This document shows positions 3,012-43,183 of a stretch of 64,000 nt of DNA, in pieces. Numbering within the stretch: the first letter of the stretch is position 1; the number at the start of each line of letters is the position of its first letter. Under the pieces are notes generated by a model. It was not told where the DNA came from. It made no database searches and was given only the letters and a program-made list of their open reading frames with translations. A program made the position numbers and the translations under genes. This DNA comes from an uncultured Verrucomicrobiae bacterium (lineage in GTDB: Bacteria > Verrucomicrobiota > Verrucomicrobiia > Limisphaerales > AAA164-E04), in assembly GCA_951813855.1 (NCBI GenBank), contig OX638380.1:386876-450875 (forward strand), written 5' to 3'.

Positions 3012-3222
3012 GTAACTATTCAAGTGCCGGAATTTCCTGATCTGACGCATTGGATCTGACCGTTGGGGGGCAGACAAATCCCGAATGGCGCACAAGTCCA
3101 TCGAGAGGTTTTTCTGATGCGAAAGGTCAGGAACATCGGAAGGCGGAAAATCTTCAATCGGGCGTTCCTTGGATCCGAAGATGGTTCCGTCAGTGGATCG
3201 AGAATCCGATTCAGGATAAAAG
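3012..3222. repeat. left terminal inverted repeat of the IS66-type element
   Basis: Reverse-complement match to 4992-5201 along about 210 bp with scattered mismatches (e.g. ...TTTCCTGATCTGACGCATT(G/A)GATC...GTCAGTGGATCGAGAATCCGATT...). Confidence 0.8.
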
Positions 3223-3276
3223 GTAACCGTTCAGATGCCGAAAAAGGTTGAATTATCGGAACGCAACGACCTGATT

Positions 3277-4881
3277 CTATTTCAATCCAAACTTCGCCAG
3301 TAACTGATCAGGAGATGACATGACCGTTTCGACGAGATCCAGACTCTGCTTTTTCGCCGTGTTCACGATACTGCGTAACACGGCATAATCCTTGGCCCCT
3401 TGATACGTGCGAAAACACCCAGAGATTTTTTGACGAATTTTCATCATGCGCCAATCGTTTTCCGCTTGATTGTTCGTGAAGGGCACCTCCGGATCCGTCA
3501 GGAATCGCGAGGTGTCTTCATTGTACTCTTGCAGCCTCACCGCTAGATTGTGCCCTTTCCGTTTCTTCTGCTTGCCTCGGCTTTTCTGTTGCAACGGTGG
3601 AAGGGATTCATAGTGCTGAATCGCTTGATCCAGGATTCGATCGTATTCATCCAACATCCCACGCAGTTCCGGGAAATCGTCTGGATCTCCCCCTTTATTC
3701 TTCTGTTTCCACCGATTCATCCGGAGCAGAAGTTTTTGCATCTGTCCCGCCCATTTTTCCTTCGGATTGAGGTCCGACACCAGTTGAAGTTCTCTCAGGT
3801 GATGAGCGTTGCACCGGGCATGCTTCACTCCCTCGACCTTGTAATACGGTTTCCAGTGGTCGTGCATCAGGCAACCCCAAAGTTTCGGGAACATTTCTCC
3901 GCGTTTTTCGGATATTCGATAAACCGTCAGGCACCAGGTGGCGGCCACGTGAAGCCAATGGAGCCTGCCGTTCACCCGAAAACCAGTCTCGTCCAGATTC
4001 TTGACCTTGCTGTCCCGGCAGACCTTTTGCTCGAGTTTCTCGACTACGGGTTCCAGGCGTTGAGCCGTCTTGCGGCACATCGCCGTTACCGTGCCCTTGG
4101 ATATCCTGATCTTGAGGAAAAGCTCCAGGATTCTCACGATCTTGTTGACGGGCAGCTGAATCTCCGGGTGCAAGATGCAGACCATCGCTATGAACTCTGG
4201 CCCATACGGTACCGGAGCTCTCACCGATTCCGGATATTGGGCCCGAGTTATTCCCTGGCAACAAGGACAATGCCCTTCAAACGCCCGGTGCTCGATCACA
4301 TGCACTTTGCCGTCCTTCAGATCAATGATCTGACGGCTGCTGTGATTCCTCGTCAAATCATCGCCAACCAGCTTCGAGCCACAGTGGCGGCAGGTATCCG
4401 GGAAGTGGTCGACGATTTGATCCGGATCAGTTCTTGGTTGGCAGGTATGTCCCTGATGGCCGGCTTGCCCGCCAGGTTTCTTCCCAGACTTTTCTCTGAG
4501 GCTCCGGTTGCGATCGGCGGCAGGCTTTTTCGCCAATCCGTCCGATGAGGGAGGCTTGCTGCTGTTCTGTTTCAGGCGGCGGTGGGCTTCATCCAATGCT
4601 TGCTGAAGCAAGGCGATCTCTTCATCCGCCTGATCGGTAGCGTCGTCTTTCTGCGGCTCGGAACACCCCGGTGATTCGTTCGGTTTCTTCGAAGCTGGAT
4701 CCTGACTGACCTCCTGATCTCCGCGTTCGTTCTGACTCAACTTGTAGCGCAACTCAGCCAATTGCTTGTGCAATTCAGCCAACTGCTCATCCCGTTCGGC
4801 CAACTGCCCACGTAGCTTGGTCAATTCATCGCGCAGATCGTTGAACCGAGAGACGTACCACTGTTTGTCGGATTCGAACAA
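3277..4881 (-). CDS. IS66 family transposase (TnpC-type)
   Basis: 534 aa. N-terminal leucine-zipper-like coiled coil (LAELHKQLAELRYKL), Cys cluster (CRHCGSKL...HCPCC), and the DDE region motif LDETGFRVNGRLHWLHVA...CNAHHLREL characteristic of IS66 TnpC. Confidence 0.9.
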   Translation of the reverse strand: MFESDKQWYVSRFNDLRDELTKLRGQLAERDEQLAELHKQLAELRYKLSQNERGDQEVSQDPASKKPNESPGCSEPQKDDATDQADEEIALLQQALDEAHRRLKQNSSKPPSSDGLAKKPAADRNRSLREKSGKKPGGQAGHQGHTCQPRTDPDQIVDHFPDTCRHCGSKLVGDDLTRNHSSRQIIDLKDGKVHVIEHRAFEGHCPCCQGITRAQYPESVRAPVPYGPEFIAMVCILHPEIQLPVNKIVRILELFLKIRISKGTVTAMCRKTAQRLEPVVEKLEQKVCRDSKVKNLDETGFRVNGRLHWLHVAATWCLTVYRISEKRGEMFPKLWGCLMHDHWKPYYKVEGVKHARCNAHHLRELQLVSDLNPKEKWAGQMQKLLLRMNRWKQKNKGGDPDDFPELRGMLDEYDRILDQAIQHYESLPPLQQKSRGKQKKRKGHNLAVRLQEYNEDTSRFLTDPEVPFTNNQAENDWRMMKIRQKISGCFRTYQGAKDYAVLRSIVNTAKKQSLDLVETVMSSPDQLLAKFGLK

Positions 4882-4991
4882 ATGAGAACGGCACGGTTAA
4901 GTGCTCCCAAAAGAGGCATCAGATTTGCCTTTGAGCCGTTGAGGTTTCCCTTCGCAGACTCATTGTACCTCCGATATACGAGAAAGTCAAA

Positions 4992-5201
4992 CTTTTCTCC
5001 GAAATCGGATTCTCGATCCACTGACGGAGCCATCTCTGGATCCCATGAACTCCCGACCGGGGATTCTCCGTCTTCGGATGTTCCTGACCTTTCGCATCAG
5101 AAAACCCCTCGATGGACTTGTGCGCCATTCGGGGTTTGTCTGACCCCCAACGGTCGGATCTAATGCGTCAGATCAGGAAATCCCGGCACCTGAATAGTTA
5201 C
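4992..5201. repeat. right terminal inverted repeat of the IS66-type element
   Basis: Reverse complement of 3012-3222 (see the left TIR). Confidence 0.8.
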
Positions 5202-10335: not shown

Positions 10336-12123
10336 ATGGACGCCAAAATCAACCTCAAGCTGGTGACTGTTCGATTAGTGAAGAGCAGTGAGCGAAGACG
10401 CTGGGATTCGCTGATGGATCAGAACCATCGCTTGGGTTTCAAAGGCTTTGCCGGACGCGGGCTGCGTTATGTTGCCGAGTACCGAGGCCGGTGGTTGGCG
10501 TTAGCCGGCTGGCAAAGCGGAGTGTTCAAGTGTCGCCCGCGAGACAAGTGGCTCGGATGGAAAAAACGAGAGCAGTTTCGTCGGCTGCATTTGATTGCCA
10601 ACAATACCCGATTCCTCCTGCTTACCGAGCGGGGCGAAGTGCGCAATCTGGGGAGCTGCGTCATGGCCAAAATGCTGCGCCGGCTGAGTGCCGATTGGCA
10701 ACGGACCTGGGGTCATCCGCTGGAATTGGCCGAAACTTTCGTCGATCCCCGACACTTCGCGGGCACGATCTATCGCGCGGGGAATTGGCGGGCGGCAGGG
10801 CAATCGCAAGGCTACGCTCGCAGCAACGGACGCTATACCGCCCGGCACAATATCAAGAAGGAAAGGTACGTTTATCCCTTGCGGCCCCAAGCCGGTTCCC
10901 GATTAAGGAAGCGTCAGGACGATCCGTCTTGGGGCCCCCAGGTGCAGCGGGTAGAAACGTCTCCGAAACAGTTGAAATCATTGGTGCAACTGCTAGCGGA
11001 AATGGCTGATTTTCGCCGGGCACAAGGACGCAAACATCGGCTGGAAATGGTCCTCGCTAGCTGCATCTTAGCTCGATTGGCCGGCAAGGTCGGCCCCTTG
11101 GCGACTTCGCGTTACGCCCAAAAAATGACGCCAAATCAATTGCAGACTCTCGGGGCGTGGCGCCACGCCAAGGGCCGTTGCGTGGCCCCGTCTCTCGCGA
11201 CGATTCACCGGGTCATGACCGAGACGGATCCGGAAGCGTTGCCAACGGTAACTCACCGCTGGGTAACGGCCCAATTGACTCGACAACCCCTGGAAGCCTT
11301 GGCTGCCGACGGGAAGCGGATCAACGGAGCTAATCGCAACAGCAAAGACCATTTCGAGACCGTCATCCTCGTGCGCCATCAAGATGCGGTGCCCCTCGCC
11401 GTTCGCATTTGCCGAGACCAAGGCGGCGAACAGGCGGCGATGGCGGCTCTCTTGGAGGATGTCGATATCCGGGGAGCCATCATTACGATCGATGCGCTCC
11501 ATACTAACCGAGTCATGGCCGATGCCATCGTGTTGGTTAACGGAGCCCATTTTCTCTTCACGGTCAAAGAGAACAACCCCGAACTCTCTCAATTTTTGAC
11601 CAGCCTGGATTGGGATCGAGTGGCCCAGGACCGGTTCACCGAAAACCCGGAGAAAGGACATGGCCGCATCGATCAACGGAGCATTCAAACCTATGAACCC
11701 CTTCCCGGAGCCGTCAAATTACCGCATGTCCTCCAAGTCTTTCGGATCCTTCGACACCGCCATCATTTAAACGGTGGGCCCGAGACCGTGGAATATGCTT
11801 ACGGCGTCACTTCGTTGCCTCCGGAAGCTGCCGACGCTCAACGATTGTTGTCACTCAATCGGGGACATTGGACGGTAGAAAACGGCAATCACCGCCGTCG
11901 CGACGGGATTTTCGGCGAAGATGATTGTCTCATGCGAACTCGCCATGGGCCGACAAACAATGCCCTCTTCAACAACCTGGCCTTGGCGATCATTCTCCAG
12001 TCGGGATACTCTAATATGGCCGAAGCTACTGACGATTTTCAGACGAATCGGAACCAAGGGTTGCGAGCCGTCACGAAAACCACCCCGTTTAAACGTCCGA
12101 AAAAACGTCCGAAAAAAAACTGA
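10336..12123 (+). CDS. ISAs1-family DDE transposase with a DUF4338-like N-terminal module
   Basis: C-terminal two thirds: DFRRAQGRKHRLEMVLASCILARLAG (DDE_Tnp_1-associated), ADGKRINGA..., ITIDALHTNRVMADAIV..GAHFLFTVKENNPEL, NRGHWTVENGNHRRRDGIFGEDDC (ISAs1/H-repeat signature). N-terminal about 190 aa: WDSLMDQNHRLGF..GRGLRYVAEY..RDKWLGW..NNTRFLLL..ETFVDPRHFAGTIYRAGNW, a DUF4338-type pattern. IS ends were not located. Confidence 0.8.
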   Translation: MDAKINLKLVTVRLVKSSERRRWDSLMDQNHRLGFKGFAGRGLRYVAEYRGRWLALAGWQSGVFKCRPRDKWLGWKKREQFRRLHLIANNTRFLLLTERGEVRNLGSCVMAKMLRRLSADWQRTWGHPLELAETFVDPRHFAGTIYRAGNWRAAGQSQGYARSNGRYTARHNIKKERYVYPLRPQAGSRLRKRQDDPSWGPQVQRVETSPKQLKSLVQLLAEMADFRRAQGRKHRLEMVLASCILARLAGKVGPLATSRYAQKMTPNQLQTLGAWRHAKGRCVAPSLATIHRVMTETDPEALPTVTHRWVTAQLTRQPLEALAADGKRINGANRNSKDHFETVILVRHQDAVPLAVRICRDQGGEQAAMAALLEDVDIRGAIITIDALHTNRVMADAIVLVNGAHFLFTVKENNPELSQFLTSLDWDRVAQDRFTENPEKGHGRIDQRSIQTYEPLPGAVKLPHVLQVFRILRHRHHLNGGPETVEYAYGVTSLPPEAADAQRLLSLNRGHWTVENGNHRRRDGIFGEDDCLMRTRHGPTNNALFNNLALAIILQSGYSNMAEATDDFQTNRNQGLRAVTKTTPFKRPKKRPKKN

Positions 12124-32613: not shown

Positions 32614-33218
32614 TCTCCACCCCAGCCGCGGCTCGATCAAGCCCAACGTTTCGGTTGGCAAACTTAAACCGTCCCCTTGCGGCTCCGGGATTGAATACTC
32701 CGGCCGATCAATGATCGTCCAAGTTCAACCGTCCGGGATGAACTGAGCTTACCTCCGTTTTTCGGAAAACCGCTCCCCCTATTTTGCCCCTTCCTAACCA
32801 ACCCGCATCTAATCGTCGGCGCAAGCTTCAGCCGGCCCGAAGTCTTTAATTTTGATTGATCCTCGATGGCCGAGGCGCCTTCCCTTTCAATCGATCAGCA
32901 AAGTGATTCTCGATTCCCGGATGATTTCGCTTCGAGTCGCCGCAGGTCACAACGCGCCGATACGCGACCGCACGGACACCGGCGACGCTTGAGCCATCGT
33001 TCCGGTCCTATTCCCCGTTGTTCATCGCCTCTCAAAAATTATCCATAAGTCGCATCCGATCAATCCAGACACGACAGCGCCCAGTTGCAGATCTCGAGAT
33101 ACCGCCTACTATTGATTCGGCTTCGACAAGTCGAACGATCTCGAACCTGAACTTTGAAGGAATAGCTTTCGGGCTTCGAGAACCGTTCCATTATCCCGGT
33201 CTGTTCTCGACAATAGAT

Positions 33219-34138
33219 TCAACTCTTGTCGATTAAAAACAAGAACTCGTGATGAGGAGACTCCGTTTTGCACAGCCATTCATGGGTCCATTTCATGCCG
33301 GCCATGACGTTGCGCTGGTAATCCAACTTCACGACGTCAACCAGGGTGCCGCATTCGGTTAAAACCCGGTTAATATCTTCAGCCGTGCCTCGCCCCCCGG
33401 AACTGTACGACAAAATCACCCACCTGGCAGAAGTAGCTTTAATCAAGCGTTCGAGCGCCTCAACCGCCAGAAATCTCCCCGAACGTTCGTTACTCTTGAA
33501 TTCTTCGAACACCGATCCCGCAATCCGATCTGAAGAATCGCAGCACCGTTTTGCCTTTCCGAATAAATCCGGGCAGTCATTCAAACACACCGTAGTCCAC
33601 AAGTGATAGTAGGAAGCGTAGCGAACGTGTGACGGCGGCATTTTCTCGTTATTGGAACCGTAAGGCGGATCGAAATAAGCCAGATCGACATCGGCGCCGC
33701 AAATATCGAAAACGTCTTTCCTCGTCACTTCGTTCGGACGGTCCGTAACGAATACCTTGGGAACTTCAAGGACCAAATCGTTGTATGATCTGGCGGACCA
33801 AGTGTTCAAATAAAAAACGAAATGCCCGATGGTGTTATCGACCCGGTCCAAGGCCAGTATCAAACTGGAAAGAGCGACAGCTCGTTCCAATGGAGATAAA
33901 GCCAATCTATCGATTTCATGACGAATACCGTCGAGCTTTCTAGTGTTATGGATCTGCCACGGCTTCTTGAGACCGGACGGTTGCAATGCACTGCCGCCAT
34001 TCCGGTCTCCCCCATAGTGTTCCGTAAACCAACCGTCCTTTGGTGAAACTTCATTCAAGCGTCGTATCAGCTTGGCATAACGACTCTCCGGATATTGGTT
34101 TTGAAGATAACACATTCCGAATACCAGCGACCAAATAG
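33219..34138 (-). pseudogene. D12-class (Dam-like) N6-adenine DNA methyltransferase, C-terminal fragment (residues about 76-381), separated from its N-terminus by IS insertion
   Basis: Contains the catalytic motif FDPPYGSNN. It begins exactly at the 9-bp duplicated target ACCAAATAG (34130-34138). It joins in frame with fragment 38031..38265 (…CNDVAIW|SLVFGMCYLQ…). Confidence 0.85.
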
Positions 34139-34317
34139 TGTCAAGTCCAAAAGTCAAAATCCATAGTTGATTTCTTTAAAAACTAAAAAAAATAATTTCA
34201 AATTAGATCGGAATAAATGGTTAAATCGACATATTTATCTTAAATTGTATTTTTTTTGATCTTTTACAGAATTCAAGACGCACCCCTCCCATTCTTGACA
34301 TTGATTTGGCGATTTAG

Positions 34318-35531
34318 TCAAGCCGCTTTCGGACGAACCAATGGCTTGGAGAGACGCTGCAGCTCCTTGTTTCGAACGAGGCTGCCAAGGCGACAACAAT
34401 TGGCACAGAGAACGGCTAGAGCTACGGTGCGTTTGAATCCGTCTGAGCCGTAGGAGTAGACTCGATTGAGGCCTCGGTGTTCCAAATGGTTGATGGCTGA
34501 TTCGACAGCGGGATGTTGCTTCCGGGCGGTTTTGAAAGCCTCGGCAGTCTCGCGTTCTTGCTCCTTTTTGGTAAGTTTCCCTTTTTTAGGCAAGGTTACT
34601 TCTGGAACCATCTCCCGGAGTTTCTCCTGATTAAGTGGATTATGAAACCCTTTGTCGAAACTGCAACTGAACAAGTCTGGAAATAGTTTTTTGGTCTCCT
34701 CGAGGATCGGGATGGCCACGTGCACATCCTCTTCTTGCCACATGACCCGATAAGTCAAAACAAATTGGTGTTGATCTTCCACGATGCAAACGGGCACCCC
34801 GAGTTCTACCGGTTTGCCTGCCTTTCCTTTCTGGATCCACCGCGTATGAGGTTCGAATACGGAATAGATCTTTTCGTCCGCCGGAATGGTTTCTCCTTGT
34901 AGAATTCGCCGATCCGCTTGTCGCGACAAGAGACGACCGCATTTCAAAAAACCTTGGATTTGCCGGTGTTTTTTCGCCTTGATCTTCTTTTTCTCCCTCA
35001 GCCGATCCCACGACGCACTGGCTCGCTCCAGGATTTGGTCGCAGGCCTTCAGATAAGCCTGGACCTGGTCGAGACGGCGGTTCGCCAGCTGAGCGGTGCG
35101 AACGGAAAAAAACAATTTCCGAATCTTCTTCAGCCAATGGTGACTTTGCCTCCACCCCTTCAGGTTCCGTTTTTTGCATTCCCGAATCAGAGTTCGAATG
35201 CAATCATAGAGCAAATTGAGATCGGTGGGATAATGGACATCCGTTTCCACCACGAACGAATCGCAACGCGTTTTGAGTTGGTCCCCTTCTTGATGCCCCG
35301 CAACCTGCTGCCCATGCTTGACGATCAGCAAGTTGATTTCCTCAATCAATTCGGGAGTCAAGAGATTGACGTTTTGAATCACGGTGGTTCGTTTATATTC
35401 TCCCCCCGGTTCGAAATCACCATGGCCTAAGACAAATCGCAACTGCTTATGATAATTAGCGAGGGTTAGCAAAAGATCGTAATTGCATCTTAAACTGTGT
35501 TTGATGAGAGCCAGAACTGGAATCGTCCAGG
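34318..35531 (-). pseudogene. outer-IS DDE transposase, C-terminal fragment (DUF772/IS5-like)
   Basis: ...AAWTIPVLALIKHSLRCNYDLLLTLANYHKQLRFVLG... CDSFVVETDVHYPTDLNLLYD ... SFDKGFHNP ... AVESAINHLEHRGL, an IS5-superfamily DDE pattern. The apparent GTG start of the listed ORF lies inside the inner IS inverted repeat. Confidence 0.75.
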
Positions 35532-37623
35532 CAGCAATTCCCACTGAAGAAGAAAATCCAGTAAAAACAAGGGTTTTCTCGATCTGGTTTTCGCGCTGCT
35601 TTTTTCAAATATTTTCAGCATTTCTTCCAAAACTATGCTACATTAATGGTGGTTTCGTTGTAATCGCTGTTTTTTCGTATCTTTTCCTGACCAAAACGTG
35701 ATTTGACGCTTTTTGGCCCTGGATCTGGTGCCATAATTCGTCTTAACCTGTTCTCCCGACGTATTTTTCGGCCAGAAAAGCCCTCCGAGAGGATCTCGAG
35801 TTGTTCTCGAACTCAGGAGTCTGCGATCTGCCGGGATCTCAGCGTCAGTCCCATGTTTTGATTCCGTTCGACGTGCCGACCGGCCTGATCCGTCGTGGAA
35901 CAAGCCGATCCTCACAACCAATCAACGAAAGGTTTTCCTTGGTGAAATTCCGCAAAAAATTACTTAAACCCAATATCCTCGGGAGGATTTGGGGGTGTTT
36001 TCGCCTCGTTCCACGCCCCTGCCGCAAAAGCAGGTACGAGGTCACCGACCATTTGATGAGCGCGTTTGTGGCGTTGCAGCAGAAATTTTCATCGTTACTG
36101 GGCTTTGACGAAGCCACTCGAAGTCGGAAACGAAAGGGTATGAGCCGAAGAACCCGGGCTAACTTGCGCAAACTGTATCGTATCAAACGAGTGCCTTCTG
36201 ATTCGGGATTACGCAAATTCCTGGATCGGATCAATCCCATTCATCTTCGATCCGCGTTCCTGGAACTGTTTCGGATGTTACAACGAAACGGAGTGTTGAA
36301 GCGATATTGGTGGGAAGACAAGCATTATCTCGTGTCGATAGACGGCACCGGGGTTTTCTCTTCCAACCATCTTCACTGTGAACACTGCTGTCAAAAACAA
36401 CACGAAAACGGTGCGATCACCTATTACCATCAAGCCGTGGGAGCCGCCGTGGTTCATCCGGACCAGTCGGAGGTTATTCCGCTAGCGCCAGAGCCGATCA
36501 GCAAGCAATTAATCGGTTCGGAAGCCGACCCGGAGGTGGGCCCGAAGGACGAGGAACTCACCGACTTTCCATACCGGTATACGGACCGTTACCGGTGGGA
36601 AAGCAGCAATAAATGGCTCATCAACGATTGCGAGAGCCGAGCCATCCGGCGGTTGGTCACCAGACTTCATCGGGAACATCCCCGCCTGAAGATCGTCGTA
36701 TTGGCCGATGGGCTTCATTCCAACGCCACGTTTATCAAGCTCCTGAAACGGTATCGAATGTCCTTTATCATCGTCGCCAGACCAAGCAATCACGAACATT
36801 TATTCGAGCTATTTGTGAAAGCGGATGAGACCGGTGAATCCCACCGGCTCGTATGCTGGGACAAAGCTGGCGTTAAGTATACGTACATCTGGGTGAATCA
36901 ACAGCCGCTGAACCAAGCTAATCCCGAGCTTAAAATTAATTTTTTATGGTGCGAAATCGAAGCTCCGGGTGAAAAGCCAGCGATTTTTTCTTGGGTCACT
37001 GATTGGGAAATTAATGACTCCAACGTTCAAAAAATAGCGCAGGCCGGTCGCAGCCGGTGGCAAATCGAGGATACTTTTAATAGTTTGAAAAATCGCGGGT
37101 ACCAGTTGGAGCATAATTATGGCCACGGAAAAGAACATCTCTCCACGGTTTTTCTGTTTTTGATGATGCTGGCGGTGCTGGTAGATCAAATGGAACTGAT
37201 CGCTTGTACTCTCTTTAAACGGGCGCCTCAGATGATCGGATCGCTCCAGGAAGTCTGGATTGAAATCAGATGCCATCTTCGCATGCATTGTCTCACGGAT
37301 TGGAACCATCTCTACCAGTTACTCGTGTATGGGATGCTCGACTTCGTGCCTAAACCTGCCGCCCCCACCTAGTCGGCGATATTCAGACCGAGATCGCTAG
37401 TCGGCGACCTCAAAAAAAAACTCGATTTAGATCGAGCTAGGAGTGGTGCGTTCTGAGCTCGTTCGTCGGTCGGGCGAAACGCAAAATAAATCACCTGGTC
37501 AAGGGAAAAAACGAAATTTCATCTGAAATCAGGCTTGAAAATCCGCTTTTCAACCGTATTTAACATATTTACAAATAATTTTTTCACAATTACAATTTGG
37601 CCTGACTTCAGTGGGAATTGCTG
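35532..37623 (+). mobile_element. IS4-superfamily insertion sequence (2092 bp) nested inside the outer IS transposase gene
   Basis: Perfect 18-bp terminal inverted repeats CAGCAATTCCCACTGAAG (35532-35549; reverse complement at 37606-37623). Perfect 9-bp TSD TCGTCCAGG (35523-35531 / 37624-37632). Confidence 0.9.
35801..37372 (+). CDS. IS4-superfamily DDE transposase
   Basis: ...HYLVSIDGTGVFSS (D1)...KIVVLADGLHSNATFI (D2)...GRSRWQIEDTFNSLKNRGYQLEH (Y-R-E-K-type box). The true start may be an internal Met (e.g. MSAFVALQQ near 36057). Confidence 0.75.
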   Translation: MFSNSGVCDLPGSQRQSHVLIPFDVPTGLIRRGTSRSSQPINERFSLVKFRKKLLKPNILGRIWGCFRLVPRPCRKSRYEVTDHLMSAFVALQQKFSSLLGFDEATRSRKRKGMSRRTRANLRKLYRIKRVPSDSGLRKFLDRINPIHLRSAFLELFRMLQRNGVLKRYWWEDKHYLVSIDGTGVFSSNHLHCEHCCQKQHENGAITYYHQAVGAAVVHPDQSEVIPLAPEPISKQLIGSEADPEVGPKDEELTDFPYRYTDRYRWESSNKWLINDCESRAIRRLVTRLHREHPRLKIVVLADGLHSNATFIKLLKRYRMSFIIVARPSNHEHLFELFVKADETGESHRLVCWDKAGVKYTYIWVNQQPLNQANPELKINFLWCEIEAPGEKPAIFSWVTDWEINDSNVQKIAQAGRSRWQIEDTFNSLKNRGYQLEHNYGHGKEHLSTVFLFLMMLAVLVDQMELIACTLFKRAPQMIGSLQEVWIEIRCHLRMHCLTDWNHLYQLLVYGMLDFVPKPAAPT

Positions 37624-37846
37624 TCGTCCAGGCACTCATGCCTGGACGACCGAATCCTTGGTCGCCGAACTGTTGAAAATGATTTTCCAGCAGCTGCTGT
37701 ATCTGGAGCCATAATGATTCGTTACCATAAACACTCTGTAGCCCAATCAAGATTCGAACGACGCCATCACGTTGCGTGGGGTCGAACTTAATTTCCTCGA
37801 AGGGTACGGGTTGAAATGCGGGTTGAGTGCTTCTGAAGATTCTCAT
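37624..37846 (-). pseudogene. outer-IS DDE transposase, N-terminal fragment (74 aa)
   Basis: MRIFRSTQPAFQPVPFEEIKFDPTQRDGVVRILIGLQSVY...GFGRPGMSAWT, a DUF772-like GRPG motif. It joins in frame to ...IPVLALIKH at 35522 after removal of the inner IS plus one TSD copy, giving a 475-aa protein. Confidence 0.75.
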
Positions 37847-38030
37847 GTTAGGAATCGAATATTAGTCTCAAAGATGCTGACAATTGGTCTCAAGGACGCT
37901 GAAAGTCCATTTTTCAGGTAAAAATCAAAGTTCCGACTCGAATGTTAGACAAATAAATCGAACAAAATGTTACAAAAAAAACCGCTTGAAATGCAGGATT
38001 TATTGAAAAATCGTCCCTTTTGGACCAGAC

Positions 38031-38265
38031 ACCAAATAGCAACATCATTGCATAAAACGCGGTATCCGGATTTGGCAAATGCTTGCGAAACCCTTGTCGA
38101 ACCGGCAAATCCATCAAGAATCGTCGTTGCTTCAGTTCGGTTGGCCAGTTCTAAAATATAAGGCAGCAACCTTAACTTGGAACCCGCATATTTAATCCCT
38201 TGAGTTGCGGGCGCATCGATCACCAGGTCCGGAAATAAAGACGAATAGGTAGACGACAAGCTCAT
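38031..38265 (-). pseudogene. D12-class DNA adenine methyltransferase, N-terminal fragment (78 aa)
   Basis: GIKYAGSKLRLLPYIL (xYxGSK motif) and ILDGFAGSTRVSQAF (FxGxG SAM motif). It ends in the duplicated target ACCAAATAG (38031-38039), after which the ORF reads into the IS end. Confidence 0.85.
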
Positions 38266-38498
38266 TTCATTCCTTCCTGTTGTTTCTTCAGTAGAATATT
38301 GGGATTAATAACCGCTAAATCAAACTCATGATCCTGATCTGATGAAACTGGCGCTTTAGCAAACAAAGATACCAACTGTTTATGATGCGAATAGTCAATC
38401 CATTTACCGGTATTCCTGTCAAAATAATTACGGCCCCTTTTGGCATGGGGCCAATAGCTTCGATGAAGCGCGTTAGCTTGGGCGTCACCATCTCGCAC
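38262..38498 (-). CDS. small ORF of unknown function, translationally coupled to the methyltransferase start
   Basis: 78 aa with a GTG start. Its TGA overlaps the MTase ATG (ATGA at 38262-38265). No recognisable domain; could be a remnant of a larger gene. Confidence 0.3.
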   Translation of the reverse strand: MRDGDAQANALHRSYWPHAKRGRNYFDRNTGKWIDYSHHKQLVSLFAKAPVSSDQDHEFDLAVINPNILLKKQQEGMK

Positions 38499-38649
38499 CT
38501 CACAGATGCGCCGATAGCCACCTGAAGAGACGGTTCATAGAAAAAATCCCCTTAAACGCCACTCACCGAATGGTATTGGAATAAATCAATGAATCTCGTC
38601 CCGTAGGGAGATTCACATGAATTGTTGCCGGTGGGAATTGAGGCTAGGA

Positions 38650-41090
38650 CTACCGATTCATGACAATTTCGTCTGGACTACGGGCTCGCCTCCCTGATCC
38701 GCAGCCCTCTTTAGTCCGATCTCAATACCCTTTTCAATACCGATCTGGATACCAACGTGGTGGGCTAACAAGGAGGTAGATAACTTGTTATAACCGTTCC
38801 AAATGATTTGATGTCCCGGAACCTTGTCCTGTTTTCGCTGACGAAATCCTCCGAGATGGGCCATTAATTGAACGGCAGGGCCGAGGCTTGCCGGTGGTTC
38901 CAAGCGGTAAATTTTGGCGTAGTCGTTGAGAAAGTTCAACTCGTCGCTGGTAAACATAATCTCGGGGTTCCAATCGGGCGATTGCCGTCCCAGTAAAGTC
39001 ATGACCATGATCCGCCAAGCGATCACGGCCTGGATCGCAATGACCCGTCGCAAGCGTTCAGCAGTGCGAAACAGCAGCGCTTCAATTTTACATCCCGACT
39101 TGAGAACTCGAAAATAATCCTCGATTTGCCACCGTTGCAAATAATACTCGACCACCTGTTGCGCCCGGTTGGCGTCCTTCACTTCCAAGGTAGTCAGCAA
39201 GTGCCATTGTACGGGAGGTTCGTCTTCGGGCGGACTGATCTCCTTAATGTGGACTGTCGACAACTTGATGGGAGCGACTCCCTTGATGATCGCCGGCAGG
39301 GTTAACTGACGGAAGCGTAACTCGCATTGGGCTACGCGCTTAAGCCGAGCGGGCCTCGCTGGCTGGCGACTTGATTTCAGCCGTTCCGTTAACCCCTTGA
39401 TTTCGACCTCCATGATGCGACGGGCCGGCCCTTCGCTCATTTGATCGAACAGCTTCGGCACTTTCTTTCCTATAATTCGATTATGATGAGCCCGGACTAA
39501 CAAGTTCACTCGCGGATGATGGCGTTGCGCCTCGAACAATTCAAAAAAGTCCGCCTCCCGATCACCCACGGCAATCACTTGGGTCTTGCCACTGACCTGA
39601 CGTGCGGCCTTGGGCCGTATCCTTGAAGCCCTCCAGCCAGCGGTCCGTCTTTTTGCCTTTTTTGCTCGGCTCTGAGTGCTGAGTTAGCCGGTCGAATCCC
39701 AAGCGTAATATCCCCAATGGCAGTCCTTGGTCCGTGACAACCATGGTCGTATGCATCTGGATTCCGGCGGTCTTGGAATTCGTCTGGTTTCTGCCGATGA
39801 TCTGTAACCCTTCGCAACCGGGGCGAGTGGCAAATCTGAGATCGGTGCCGTCCTGAATCGCCAGCACCGTGGTTTGATTTCGGAACCGTTGCACGCTGCG
39901 ATGGCGATGGGTCGCCAAAATGTTTGCTACCGTCACTCCGCTGTCGTCCGGCTTCTCGACCAGGCGATAGAAGGCATTGATGGCGGTCAAATCATTCTCT
40001 GGGGCGGCATTGATTTTCTCTCCCATATGTTGTGCTAGCAGTGGGACGCTTCTGACCAGACGGGCCGTCAATCGCTTATCGCCCAACGGAGCTTCGCCAA
40101 ATTCATTCTTCGCCCATTCCGAGGTGTTCAAGCCGGCTCCCGGTTCCAAGGCCGGAGCATGGTCGACCCAAGGCACTTGTAATGCTCGCCGCCAGCCGGG
40201 AGTCAAGGCGTACATGTAAATCGTTTTAACCGTTTTTTCAAACCGTTTGTGACGATCTTGACGACCGCGACCGACCGTTTGACCAACGCACACGAAATTA
40301 GCGGCGCGCAAGCAGGTCCCCTCGTATCCTTCGTCGGTAAAACTTTCGACGAGTAACGGTCGATAGTCATACTGAGATTTAAAATCATCGGGCAAGCGTC
40401 GCAAAATAATCCCCAACACGTGGCTGGCCAGATGCTGACAACGAACGGACGGGCGGATGAGAAATCGACTCAGCCCCACCACTCGGTGAAGCTGATCCCG
40501 ACGTTGTTCCTCGCTCCAAGCTATCCAACGATCCCGGGCCGTGAGCCGTACAGCGGAAGCGGAGAATCCGGCCGCTCCCAGCCAACCATGCGCGGAACCA
40601 ATCAGATAACGGATTTGGCAACCCACGAAAGTTGTATTCCCTTGAGGATGTTCGTTGGCGATGAGCGTGTTCCACACCGGGCGATTATCGTCGGTCACGA
40701 CCATCACCTCCAAATCAGTAATCTTCGCTAGGGTCGGAGGTACGGCTTTCGGTAGCGAAACAGCCTTGTCGAGTAATCGAGGAGTTGACTTCACGGCCGG
40801 CCGACGGGCCGCCGGCAATGACAGACCTTTCGTCGTCTCCAGTTGCGACAGTGCCTTTAGGCACCCCGCCAGTTGAGGTCGCCCTTGGGGATTGAAAAAA
40901 CGAAATTCCTGGCAGATTCGTCGGCCTAAATCACTTCGGCTATTAAACTGTTCTTGGGTAAGAATCGCCGTAATTCGCAGAAGCGAACCCTCCAGATGCA
41001 ACGTTCGGCAGATATGAGATTGCGCCATACGGCAGCTAGTATATCCATTCAAAAATAGATTGTCCAGTCTTTTTTTCCATTAGACGGTAG
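38650..41090 (-). mobile_element. IS4-family (Tn5/IS50-like) insertion sequence, 2441 bp
   Basis: Ends CTACCGATTCATGAC...GTCTGGAC / CTACCGTCTAATGG...GACTGGAC in inverted orientation. The 8-bp direct repeat GGCTAGGA directly flanks it (38642-38649 / 41091-41098). Confidence 0.7.
38658..41052 (-). pseudogene. Tn5-like DDE transposase with a DUF4338-like N-terminal module, split by one frameshift (ORFs 39562..41052 and 38658..39578)
   Basis: ORF1: DUF4338-like (GCQIRYLIGSAHGWLGAAGF..RDRWIAW..LSRFLIR..ESFTDEGYEGTCLRAANF), then a Tn5-type N-terminal region (...LAIQDGTDLRF...KKTDRWLEGF). ORF2: VIAVGDREADFFELF...YYLQRWQIEDYFRVLKSGCKIE. The ORF2 frame is already open and coding-like upstream of its Met (RPKAARQVSGKTQVIAVGD), which places a 1-nt indel near 39605-39630. 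Confidence 0.8.
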
Positions 41091-41361
41091 GGCTAGGAAA
41101 CGCGGCTCCCAAGGACCGCAGGTGAGCCCTGAACGGAGCAATTACAGCAGCAGTCCGACATGCATGCCCCCCCAAGGCGTATTTCGGCCACCAAAAAAAG
41201 CCTTGTCAAAGATCCAGATTTCGTCATGATGTTCCGAAATCGCGACTCGAGCCAGGGTGATGAAAAGAGGCGATACGAAATTCGCCGAGGAGCCAGATTT
41301 TAACTGATCCGTCGAAAGGATGGTCACACCGCTATCTGGGACGCTAACGAGAAAGAACCAC

Positions 41362-42891
41362 ATGCGGATGAAATCGCTGCACATCACGGCTGTTTTAGGA
41401 ACGGCCGCCATCATAGTCGCTACGCTTGCTTTGTTTTTTTATATCAAAGCGTTGGATGCCGACAAAAACGAAGGCAACTCAGAAGCTACCCATGCTGAGT
41501 TCACGGCCATTGCGGCGGGATATGATCACTCAGTGGCCTTGAGAACAGACGGTTCCGTGGTCGCTTGGGGGAAGAACAAAGACGATCGAAAGAAAGTACC
41601 GAATGGCCTGAAGGACGTGACGGCCATTGCGGCGGGAGCCTTACACACCGTGGCCTTGAGAACAGACGGTTCCGTGGCCGCTTGGGGGAATAACGAATAC
41701 GGTCAAACGGATGTGCCTAATGGACTGAAGGACGTGACGGCCATTGCGGCGGAAAGAAGTCACACCGTGGCCTTGAGAACGGACGGTTCCGTGGTCGCTT
41801 GGGGGAATAACGAATACGATCAAACGGATGTGCCGAATGGACTGAAGGACGTGACGGCCATTGCGGCGGGAAGAAGTCACACCGTGGCCTTGAGAACGGA
41901 CGGTTCCGTGGTCGCTTGGGGGTCGAACGAATCCGGTCAAACGGATGTGCCGAATGGACTGAAAGACGTGTCGGCCATTGCGGCGGGAGCCGAGCACACC
42001 GTGGCCTTGAGAACGGACGGTTCCGTGGTCGCTTGGGGGGCTAACAGATCCGGTCAAACGGAGGTGCCGAATGGACTGAAGGACATAACGGCAATTGCGG
42101 CGGGATATTTTCACACCGTGGCCTTGAGAACGGACGGTTCCGTAGTCGCTTGGGGGTGGAACGAATCCGGGCAAACGGATGTGCCAAATGGACTGAAAGA
42201 CGTGACAGCCGTTGCGGCGGGATACAAGCACACCATGGCCTTGAGAACGGACGGTTCCGTGGCCGCCTAGGGGTGGGACAAATGGGGTCAAACGGATGTA
42301 CCGAATGGACTGAAGGACGTGATGGCCATTGCGGCAGGAGACTTACACACCGTGGCCTTGAGAACGGACGGTTCTGTGGTCGCTTGGGGGTGGGACATGT
42401 GGGGTCAAACGGATGTGCCGAATGGACTGAAGGATGTGACGGCCGTTGCGGCGGGATATTTTCACACCGTGGCCTTGAGAACGGACGGCTCCGTGGCCGC
42501 TTGGGGGCGGGACATATGGAGTCAAACGGAGGTGCCGAATGGACTGAAGGACGTGACGGCCATTGCGGCGGGAGCCTTACACACCGTGGCCTTGAGAACA
42601 GACGGTTCCGTGGCCGCCTGGGGGTGGAACAATTCCGGTCAAACGGATGTGCCGAATGACCTGAAGGACGTGACGGCCATTGCGGCGGGAGCCGAGCACA
42701 CCGTGGCCTTGAGAACGGACGGTTCCGTGGTCGCTTGGGGGGATAACGATTTCGGTCAAACGGATGTGCCGAATAGACTGAAGGACGTGACGGCCATTGC
42801 GGTGGGAGCCGAACACACCGTGGCCTTGAGAACGGACGGTTCCGTGGTCGCTTGGGGGGAATTAACGGGTTTGAACGCCATTTTGAACTGA
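41362..42891 (+). pseudogene. membrane-anchored RCC1-like repeat protein gene interrupted by an in-frame TAG (ORFs 41320..42270 + 42319..42891, same frame)
   Basis: N-terminal TM (ITAVLGTAAIIVATLALFFYI), then 12 units of the type AIAAGxxHTVALRTDGSVVAWGxNxxGQTDVPNGLKDVT. TAG at 42268-42270 replaces the conserved Trp codon (GCC TAG GGG versus GCT/GCC TGG GGG in the other units). Confidence 0.8.
41503..42891 (+). repeat. tandem array of 12 units of 117 bp (39 codons) with very high nucleotide identity
   Basis: Unit starts at 41503, 41620, ... with a period of exactly 117. Long identical strings such as CACACCGTGGCCTTGAGAACGGACGGTTCCGTGGTCGCTTGGGGG recur. Confidence 0.9.
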
Positions 42892-43183
42892 ACGATCTGA
42901 CGAAAAGGGCGCATTCCCGTTATCAAGGATTTCATGTTTCGCTTCTGTCAGAAGATGAGTGATCTCTTTTCATCCGACGTCCCTGGTTGATCGTCAGGCG
43001 GCTTCAGATCTAATATTCTCGACCCTCAACGTTTGCTTTCGAGTGGCATTCAATTGCCGTTCCAGCAAAATTACGGGAATAATCCCAAGCCCCGTGATTT
43101 CAGAAAGCCAGTGCTGAAAGCACAAGAAGATCTTATCCGGTATCAACCGAGGGTGATCGAACCGAGAACCAGAGCGCTGTTAC

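Follow-up and report, generated by a model that had tools for sequence, protein, structure and literature searches.

The window, i.e., the whole stretch of 64,000 nucleotides that was analyzed, probably derives from an uncultured verrucomicrobium of the order Limisphaerales. It contains a predicted D12-class methylase gene that is interrupted by an insertion sequence (IS), the transposase gene of which is interrupted by a second IS (Table 1). This three-layer nesting had been proposed in a preliminary description of the sequence, and it was borne out when all coordinates, repeats and duplications were recomputed and the elements were excised in silico. First, the string ACCAAATAG is found at just two places within the 64-kb window, and its two copies bracket a block of 3892 bp (34139-38030). 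Removal of this block together with one copy of ACCAAATAG restored a 381-aa methylase ORF (...CNDVAIW|SLVFGMCYLQ...), in which the motifs KYAGSK, DGFAGS and FDPPYG were all found. Second, CAGCAATTCCCACTGAAG occurs once on each strand and forms the perfect inverted repeats of the inner element, which is flanked on both sides by TCGTCCAGG. Excision of the inner element and one copy of TCGTCCAGG yielded a 475-aa transposase ORF (...GRPGMSAWT|IPVLALIK...), which is the one ORF of the restored outer element of 1791 bp. Both ORFs and their junctions were thus exact upon excision and translation, as had been claimed.

Each layer has its own target duplication and, in related assemblies, a matching empty site (locus L004 for the outer and locus L008 for the inner element). 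Since natural empty sites exist for both elements, the reconstruction is independent of chance statistics. The inner-outer junctions, for which the window is the single assembly, are supported by the 9-bp duplication, which is perfect, and by the empty site that L008 shows at the matching position.

Table 1. Features of the nested locus and its neighborhood (positions in the window).
Feature	Position	Strand	Details
Methylase, C-terminal part	33219..34138	-	Codons 76-381 and stop, including left target copy 34130-34138; collinear with intact L004 gene
Outer ISNCY-family element (by NCBIfam threshold), left segment	34139..35531	-	Terminal repeat TGTCAAGTCCAAAAG 34139-34153; transposase C-terminal part 34318-35531; left TCGTCCAGG 35523-35531
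Inner 2092-bp IS	35532..37623	+	Perfect 18-bp inverted repeats 35532-35549 and 37606-37623
Inner IS transposase	35942..37372	+	476 aa from GTG at 35942; DDE_Tnp_1; R(3)E(6)K motif SRWQIEDTFNSLK
Outer element, right segment	37624..38030	-	Right TCGTCCAGG 37624-37632; transposase N-terminus, ATG 37846 down to 37633; terminal repeat CTTTTGGACCAGAC(A) 38017-38030(31)
Methylase, N-terminal 78 codons	38031..38265	-	KYAGSK, DGFAGS; including right target copy 38031-38039
Partner-gene C-terminal remnant (putative type II restriction endonuclease)	38265..38513	-	78-82 codons; stop overlaps methylase ATG by 4 nt
Neighboring Tn5-type IS4-family element	38644..41096 (approximate)	-	NF033590 221.9 bits; PF14236; PF14706; PF02281

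Classification of the methylase and the two insertion sequences

The restored methylase matched the Pfam profile PF02086 over residues 26-241 with 66.9 bits (cut-off of 22), and on this profile match it is predicted to be a D12-class N6-adenine DNA methyltransferase. The AdoMet-binding motif I (DGFAGS, about residue 52) and the catalytic motif IV (FDPPYG, about residue 230) are in the order of the alpha group and lie on opposite sides of the insertion. The restored length is comparable to that of the homologues (377-382 aa, 97-100% of the query covered), and the family is kept at about 70-78% identity across phyla. No NCBIfam model was matched at E = 0.01, and a PDB sequence search returned no relative; the earlier designation 'Dam-like' would hold only at class level.

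The restored outer transposase matched the NCBIfam ISNCY model NF033593 end to end (409.8 bits, cut-off of 325; model positions 1-443 of 444). Its similarity to the IS5 model NF033578 is real, yet remained sub-threshold (115 bits, cut-off of 275). By the NCBIfam thresholds, the outer element is assigned to the ISNCY family and not to IS5, and of the earlier label 'IS5/ISNCY-like' only the latter half is retained. ISNCY is a holding category for elements 'not classified yet'. The element is 1.79 kb in length; its terminal repeats are short and imperfect, and its duplication comprises 8-9 bp. The 9-bp identity of its flanks, previously described as a perfect 9-bp duplication, was confirmed; however, the ends of the element are symmetric only if read TGTC...GACA (34139-38031), and the duplication may be 8 bp (CCAAATAG) plus one coincidental ninth base, the window copy alone being compatible with either length. 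The outer element is multicopy: its left segment was 98-99% identical to independent copies in the loci L003, L007 and L085, and the restored transposase was 100% identical to protein P0260, encoded by an intact gene in a 4.89-Mb contig with at least five distinct 475-aa variants.

The inner transposase scored 34 bits against PF01609 (DDE_Tnp_1; cut-off of 23). Its longest ORF encodes 523 aa from a TTG at 35801, and its homologues, about 1,200 in number, are 431-476 aa long; the nearest annotated relatives (<30% identity) are labeled ISNCY. Against all NCBIfam IS models, including IS4_1, IS4_3, IS701 and IS1634, every score was below the cut-off, the best IS4 model (NF033591) giving 33 bits versus a cut-off of 152. 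The previous name 'IS4-like' is consistent with the PF01609 match, the 18-bp repeats and the 9-bp duplication, but not with the NCBIfam IS4, IS701 and IS1634 models, all of which failed; it would thus apply only at the level of the DDE_Tnp_1 superfamily, as the element matches no curated family model. With the IS4 family (IS10, IS50), the inner element shares 9-bp duplications, the DDE_Tnp_1 domain, R(3)E(6)K and terminal repeats (here 18 bp, perfect, starting with CA). In contrast to that family, the Y of the YREK signature is not evident, and the element, at 2.09 kb, is long and has about 410 bp of non-coding sequence on its 5' side.

The inner element is multicopy as well. Full-length copies (95-99.9% identical) in the loci L003, L085 and L111 each have their own perfect 9-bp duplication, which makes four independent sites including the window, and the same 4.89-Mb contig has a transposase cluster of 31 members, among which several are full-length. 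A scan of a genome collection with the inner transposase returned no relatives. The 25 matches in a metagenome scan with the 18-bp terminal repeat comprised 23 chance matches and two distant relatives, and no new copies. Exact-protein look-ups for two proteins of the 4.89-Mb contig (P0260 and P0251) gave no match. The locus flags two IS elements that are probably unnamed.

Natural alleles and the order of the insertions

The uninterrupted methylase, for which a comparison with related strains had been proposed, was found in L004. This locus aligned without a break to the window minus the outer block (99.3% over 1771 bp), has a single CTATTTGGT and encodes an intact 381-aa methylase (P0257) reading CNDVAIWSLVFGMCYLQ. 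Both of its ends run into other repeats, its flanks differ from those of the window and it is 0.7% diverged; it may represent the allele of a less closely related strain or of another genomic location. In L008, a long-read contig from another sample, the outer element was present at the same methylase site with an intact 475-aa transposase gene, and the target of the inner element was single-copy. Two independent short-read contigs (L001 and L009) showed the same methylase/IS junction with 99.9% identity. With the intact allele (L004), the allele with only the outer element (L008) and the allele with both elements (window), the order of events is observed, beyond inference; that the methylase was hit first and the IS afterwards, as previously stated, is seen directly in these alleles.

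Both elements are multicopy, and in related strains the short-read assemblies are interrupted exactly within the outer IS (in L001, after 102 bp of it), as might be expected if the arrangement were an assembly chimera of collapsed or mis-joined IS copies. A mis-join, however, would not account for the perfect 9-bp direct repeats found at each level or for reading frames that close exactly. Moreover, the long-read contig L008 reads through the entire outer element at this methylase site, and the same nested architecture was found at other loci, each time with its own duplication. A chimera is therefore considered highly improbable.

Both filled and empty alleles occur among metagenome assemblies that have neighboring ENA accessions (ERZ15614521 and ERZ15614336), a pattern that would also fit a reversible on/off switch (phase variation) of the methylase by IS insertion instead of terminal decay. 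This explanation is even less credible than a chimera. DDE insertion sequences seldom excise precisely; the empty allele, with its divergence and different flanks, is not a revertant; and the filled alleles have since been hit again, by the inner IS in the window and by an IS10-like element in L008, which is the behavior of a neutral pseudogene.

The earlier view that both events are recent needs to be qualified. The outer insertion is common to strains that have since diverged and predates their split. Between strains, the IS at the methylase locus showed about 20 times more differences per base than the flanking chromosome, an excess that points to gene conversion among IS copies. The perfect ORFs are therefore not a clean clock. 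Multicopy ISs with perfect ORFs would generally be poor clocks when their copies are kept alike by gene conversion.

Nested ISs have been described for Wolbachia, where 18 IS copies had been interrupted by other, nested ISs (Cerveau et al. 2011, PMC3205602). The stack described here resembles these nests in that a younger IS interrupts an older one, both are bounded by a target duplication of their own and excision recovers the disrupted copy. It differs in being located inside a methylase gene, in the natural alleles from related strains that are available for each stage and in the nesting of the same pair of elements at two further loci (L003 and L085), at different positions.

Insertion sites of the inner element

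Searches with the inner transposase as the sole key recovered four copies of the inner element with their context, from mixed strains. Three of them lie inside separate copies of the outer element, each with its own perfect 9-bp duplication, at positions 1385-1393 (window), 1168-1176 (L003) and 472-480 (L085) of the outer element; the fourth (L111) splits a type IIG-like methylase gene. These contexts could suggest that the nest arose from target choice, i.e., that the outer ISNCY element, or IS and defence-island DNA in general, is an actively preferred target of the inner element. As a rough estimate, not a computed value, the outer element, if present in about 10-20 copies (at least five protein variants were seen), would account for well under 1% of the 4.9-Mb genome, and three of four insertions within it would be very unlikely under uniform insertion. 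However, the three sites differ and have no clear common motif, the inner copy in L085 is in a different orientation, and each of the four targets is dispensable DNA with a low GC content (36-50%, against 57% for the genome). An AT-rich regional preference combined with purifying selection explains the pattern without IS-specific recognition, and the sample is restricted to four copies from mixed strains. Thus, target choice is an unlikely cause of the nest.

A precedent for such a preference is IS231A, which reportedly inserts preferentially in the ends of Tn4430. The likeness lies in three of four inner copies being located in copies of a single other IS; unlike IS231A, the inner element has no common target sequence or position, the sample is tiny, and low GC and dispensability suffice as explanation. 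Speculatively, there may be an uncatalogued group of DDE_Tnp_1 ISs, of which the inner 2.09-kb element would be a member and which may preferentially colonize other ISs and defence-island DNA, a 'safe-haven' or hyperparasitic strategy, although this is doubtful. If true, such a strategy would explain why three of the four copies are found at three positions in the same ISNCY element and the fourth in a type IIG R-M gene.

Partner gene and proposed decay of the cassette

Directly upstream of the methylase, an ORF (38265-38498) overlaps its start by 4 nt (ATGA). The 31 homologues of this 78-82-codon ORF always aligned at their C-termini, and full-length forms have 287-295 aa; it is read as the C-terminal remnant of a protein family of about 290 aa. 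The possibility of a small regulator or chance ORF of 78 aa was rejected, since the homologues always aligned at the C-terminus of longer proteins of up to 295 aa. In L006, the partner gene lies directly upstream of a 77%-identical methylase, disrupted by an IS3 element and a frameshift, and in L005 it is reduced to a C-terminal fragment upstream of a methylase that is also 77% identical. The methylase is often solitary, as in L002, or adjoins a broken partner gene. No intact R-M pair was present among the loci recovered (fragment in L005, IS3-split pseudogene in L006, remnant in the window). In L004, the strain with the intact methylase, the partner gene was already truncated.

The partner protein had no match in Pfam, NCBIfam and PDB sequence searches. 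The best PDB matches of its AlphaFold model were R.SwaI, Hjc and RecU-type nucleases, with weak scores (best E = 2.6e-3, TM = 0.26-0.32), and the partner gene is weakly assigned as a putative endonuclease on this basis. The statement that no endonuclease ORF survives nearby is accurate for intact ORFs and has to be amended for the putative endonuclease remnant. The locus can still be regarded as decayed and R-M-like, as had been suggested, by virtue of this remnant, the family of which adjoins the homologous methylase in L006 and L005. An uncharacterized endonuclease-like family linked to a widely distributed methylase is thereby flagged. The GC content of 44-49% across the cassette, versus 57% in the rest of the window, would count for a foreign origin.

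Taken together, the locus very probably records how, in an IS-rich genome, a type II R-M cassette of horizontal origin decayed step by step, driven by ISs. First, the partner gene encoding the putative endonuclease would have lost about 210 N-terminal codons, leaving an orphan 381-aa D12-class methylase, a stage kept in L004. Second, without the endonuclease, the methylase would no longer have been indispensable, and the 1.79-kb ISNCY-family element inserted into CTATTTGGT at methylase codons 76-78 with duplication of 8 or 9 bp, a stage kept in L008, L001 and L009. Third, in the window lineage, the 2.09-kb DDE_Tnp_1 (IS4-type) element inserted into the ISNCY transposase gene with duplication of 9 bp (TCGTCCAGG), inactivating that copy. 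For both elements, the mode of movement would be ordinary DDE transposition (cut-or-copy), in which the target is cleaved in a staggered manner. ISs would accumulate at the locus because the target is dispensable, low-GC foreign DNA in which insertions are cost-free. The second and third steps and their order can be read from the sequences; the assignment of the partner gene as an endonuclease and the selective logic are the presumptive parts of this path.

Orphan methyltransferases reportedly derive from degraded type II R-M systems in which the endonuclease was lost first. Here too, the partner is truncated where the methylase is still intact; however, the orphan methylase was likewise not retained in the window lineage, and the partner family is without Pfam, NCBIfam or PDB sequence match, its endonuclease nature being putative. 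The reconstruction is correct, but it describes ordinary genome decay and leaves current understanding unchanged. Its main value is that of a clean worked example, in which one locus and its related strains record the decay path of an R-M cassette from loss of the endonuclease via the orphan methylase to an IS in the methylase and a second IS in the first, with each step kept as a natural allele.

In the neighboring Tn5-type IS4-family element, the transposase is divided between two overlapping ORFs and has DruA (DUF4338) as its N-terminal domain. For this IS, no target duplication was found, and its terminal repeat, CTAG(G/C)(A/C)CTACCG, is weak. Direct cutting of the partner gene by this IS was considered and is unsupported, as the homology ends about 90-130 bp away from the apparent IS boundary, without a target duplication. 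Rfam and tRNA scans of the region revealed nothing relevant. A 117-bp tandem repeat next door is coding sequence of an RCC1-repeat protein.

Nested insertions and natural alleles of the methylase locus

The region 33000-38500 was re-read and all strings were recomputed. The outer target duplication ACCAAATAG occurred exactly twice in the 64-kb window, its copies enclosing a block of 3892 bp. Deletion of the inner element plus one copy of its duplication yielded a 1791-bp outer element with a single ORF of 475 aa (...GRPGMSAWT/IPVLALIK...). Deletion of the entire block together with one copy of its duplication yielded a minus-strand ORF of 381 aa (...CNDVAIW/SLVFGMCYLQ...) containing KYAGSK, DGFAGS and FDPPYG. 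The coordinates, lengths and junction peptides of the preliminary description, which had proposed an IS within an IS within a methylase gene, were all correct, and both reading frames were restored as it had predicted.

Features of the nested locus, its relatives and its surroundings
Locus	Coordinates	Feature	Details
Window	3012-5201	IS66-family element	Transposase 3277-4881 (-)
Window	10336-12123 (+)	DruA-domain transposase	DDE_Tnp_1_assoc + DDE_Tnp_1, ISAs1-like
Window	34139-38030	Outer IS	ACCAAATAG at 34130-34138, 38031-38039
Window	35532-37623	Inner IS, 2092 bp	Ends CAGCAATTCCCACTGAAG and reverse complement (35532-35549, 37606-37623); TCGTCCAGG at 35523-35531, 37624-37632; outer-IS positions 1385-1393
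Window	38265-38498	78-aa ORF	
Window	~38644-41096	Tn5-type IS, N-terminal DruA domain	Adjoins cassette
Window	39562-41052 (-)	DruA-domain transposase	Tn5-type IS4_3
Window	41386-42972	117-bp tandem units	ORF start 41320
L003		Inner IS in another outer-IS copy	Outer-IS positions 1168-1176
L003	1682-1734, 2783-2859	Repeated element	Matches L004 ends
L004	1-53, 1808-1911	Contig ends	Window equivalents 38803, 33127
L006	2786-4995	Partner gene and methylase	Unrelated genome
L007	1022-4606	Two full outer-IS copies	Head to tail
L008	4442-5993	IS10-like element, 1552 bp	Methylase codons 15-17
L085	179-7161	Third outer-IS copy with inner IS	Outer-IS positions 472-480, opposite relative orientation
L111	3592-5682	Inner IS in type IIG/Eco57I-like methylase-endonuclease gene	Excision restores 1348-aa ORF with NPPW

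The strongest evidence came from natural intermediate alleles. When clustered at 90% identity, the truncated methylase ORF groups with a 381-aa protein (P0257), the intact methylase encoded on the short-read contig L004 (sample ERZ15614336). L004 aligned without a break to the window minus 34139-38039 (99.3% over 1771 bp), with a single CTATTTGGT and the sequence CNDVAIWSLVFGMCYLQ across the site. Both its ends diverge from the window and match another repeated element, and the cassette in L004 may therefore have another IS at either side. On L008, a 186.7-kb contig (sample ERZ18545484) taken as long-read from its hifiasm-style name (ptg…), the methylase is split by the outer IS alone, at the identical site. 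In this sister strain, the locus is 99.7-99.8% identical to the window, with an uninterrupted 475-aa outer transposase and a single copy of the inner target; an IS10-like element (9-bp duplication GATCGATGC; ends CTGACGAATCCCC and CTAAAGGATCCCC; transposase of 401 aa) adds a third IS type at the methylase locus. Two more short-read contigs (L001 and L009, 99.9% identity) show the methylase/outer-IS junction as in the window, and L001 breaks 102 bp into the outer IS, as expected for a repeat. Thus, the proposed order, methylase hit first and then the IS, was observed directly in L004, L008 and the window. It is very unlikely that an assembly chimera accounts for the nested arrangement.

The nesting is real and its original interpretation was essentially right. 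In IS-rich genomes, insertion of one IS into another is commonplace, with 18 such cases reported for Wolbachia (PMC3205602). The locus is ordinary biology, though unusually well documented by natural intermediates, and adds two probably unnamed IS elements to the kinds already known.

Families, copy number and age of the two elements

The outer transposase passed the NCBIfam ISNCY model NF033593 end to end (409.8 bits, cut-off 325) and failed the IS5 model (115 bits, cut-off 275); of the earlier label 'IS5/ISNCY-like', only ISNCY stands. The inner transposase has a DDE_Tnp_1 domain (34 bits, cut-off 23) and the R(3)E(6)K motif, in keeping with 'IS4-like', but scored far under the cut-offs of every curated IS4, IS701, IS1634 and IS1380 model in NCBIfam. 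Its closest annotated relatives, from cyanobacterial plasmids, are less than 30% identical and labelled 'ISNCY family transposase' or 'hypothetical'. Since its approximately 1,200 homologues have 430-476 aa, translation probably begins at the GTG at 35942.

Perfect 9-bp duplications border the inner element at four independent sites (TCGTCCAGG, TGCTGACCA, CCGTGAGAT and CTTTTTACC). The window copy of the outer element is flanked by a 9-bp duplication, but its termini are symmetric (TGTC...GACA, 13/15 matching) only if 38031 is counted in the element, which would make the target duplication 8 bp (CCAAATAG). In the other copies (L003, L007, L085), the flanks are similar to a palindromic CTAnnTAG target.

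Each element exists in several copies and is probably active. P0260, the product of an intact gene on an NCBI/ENA contig of 4,887,276 bp, matches the restored outer transposase at 100% identity. This contig carries at least five distinct 475-aa variants of the P0260 cluster, and also several full-length variants of the inner-transposase cluster (31 members). The outer-element pair in L007, separated by 9 bp (CTAATTAGT), could have arisen as a tandem dimer or by insertion directly beside an existing end.

L008 and the window differed at 14 of 1791 bp in the outer IS, compared to 2 of 920 bp in the methylase fragment and 3 of 8000 bp in the flanking chromosome. The differences are thus unevenly spread, and gene conversion between copies of the element is the best explanation for the approximately 20-fold excess inside the outer IS. 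The outer insertion is therefore older than the strain split, and its age cannot be read from its identity to another intact copy. The insertions had been called recent; this needs qualification, as intact restored frames are a poor measure of age.

Insertion sites of the inner element

Retrieval by inner-transposase variants alone yielded three more copies with their context. The inner element lies inside outer-IS copies at three of the four loci, which is unexpected under uniform insertion. The copy in L085 is a 95% identical variant with the duplication CCGTGAGAT, and the outer element there is also interrupted by IS21 (8-bp duplication GTGCACGT). Three of four copies within one other IS might suggest that the inner element specifically targets the outer IS. 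This is unlikely, however, since the sites have no motif in common and each of the four targets is dispensable DNA of low GC content (36-50%). An AT-rich regional bias combined with survival in neutral DNA is therefore preferred as the explanation of the nesting pattern.

Decay of the methylase cassette and its surroundings

The restored methylase matched Pfam PF02086 (D12-class N6-adenine methyltransferase) with 66.9 bits (cut-off 22). Among the best matches listed of its more than 6,000 homologues, most have 377-382 aa and align over virtually its entire length. As no match was found among NCBIfam models or PDB sequences, the designation 'Dam-like' holds as a class statement only.

The 78-aa ORF and the methylase ATG share a 4-nt overlap. 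In an exhaustive profile search, the ORF had 31 relatives, all aligning via their C-termini, the longest with 287-295 aa. In L006, the partner gene lies directly upstream of a 77%-identical, intact methylase and is split by a 1339-bp IS3 (3-bp duplication AAG) and frameshifted. It is reduced to fragments in L005, and in L002 the methylase is solitary. Sequence searches of Pfam, NCBIfam and the PDB gave no match for the partner family. The top PDB fold matches of its AlphaFold model (pLDDT 73.5, pTM 0.71), all weak, were R.SwaI (E = 2.6e-3), RecU/PrfA and Hjc resolvases, and several other type II endonucleases. With moderate confidence, the 78-aa ORF is taken to be what is left of the cognate endonuclease. 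Thus, the statement that no endonuclease ORF survives is true of intact ORFs but overlooked this putative C-terminal remnant. In L004, the partner gene is already truncated while the methylase is intact, in agreement with the order expected for decaying R-M systems, in which loss of the endonuclease comes first. Orphan methylases surviving decayed R-M systems are well known.

The GC content of the cassette (44-49% versus 57% in the rest of the window) indicates horizontal acquisition. For the adjoining Tn5-type IS, no target duplication was found. The neighboring M49 peptidase is 76-77% identical to Limisphaerales and Pedosphaera MAG proteins, and the host is probably an uncultured verrucomicrobium (Verrucomicrobiota). 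The additional IS66 element and second DruA-domain transposase in the window point to an IS-rich genome. The IS66 transposase lies within inverted repeats of unusual length (arms of about 200 nt, 85-93% identity). The two DruA-domain transposases belong to different DDE lineages, each with an N-terminal DruA domain (PF14236, formerly DUF4338), named after the Druantia defence protein. Finally, about 13 tandem copies of the 117-bp unit (82-89% identical, strong positive GC skew) encode RCC1-type repeats.
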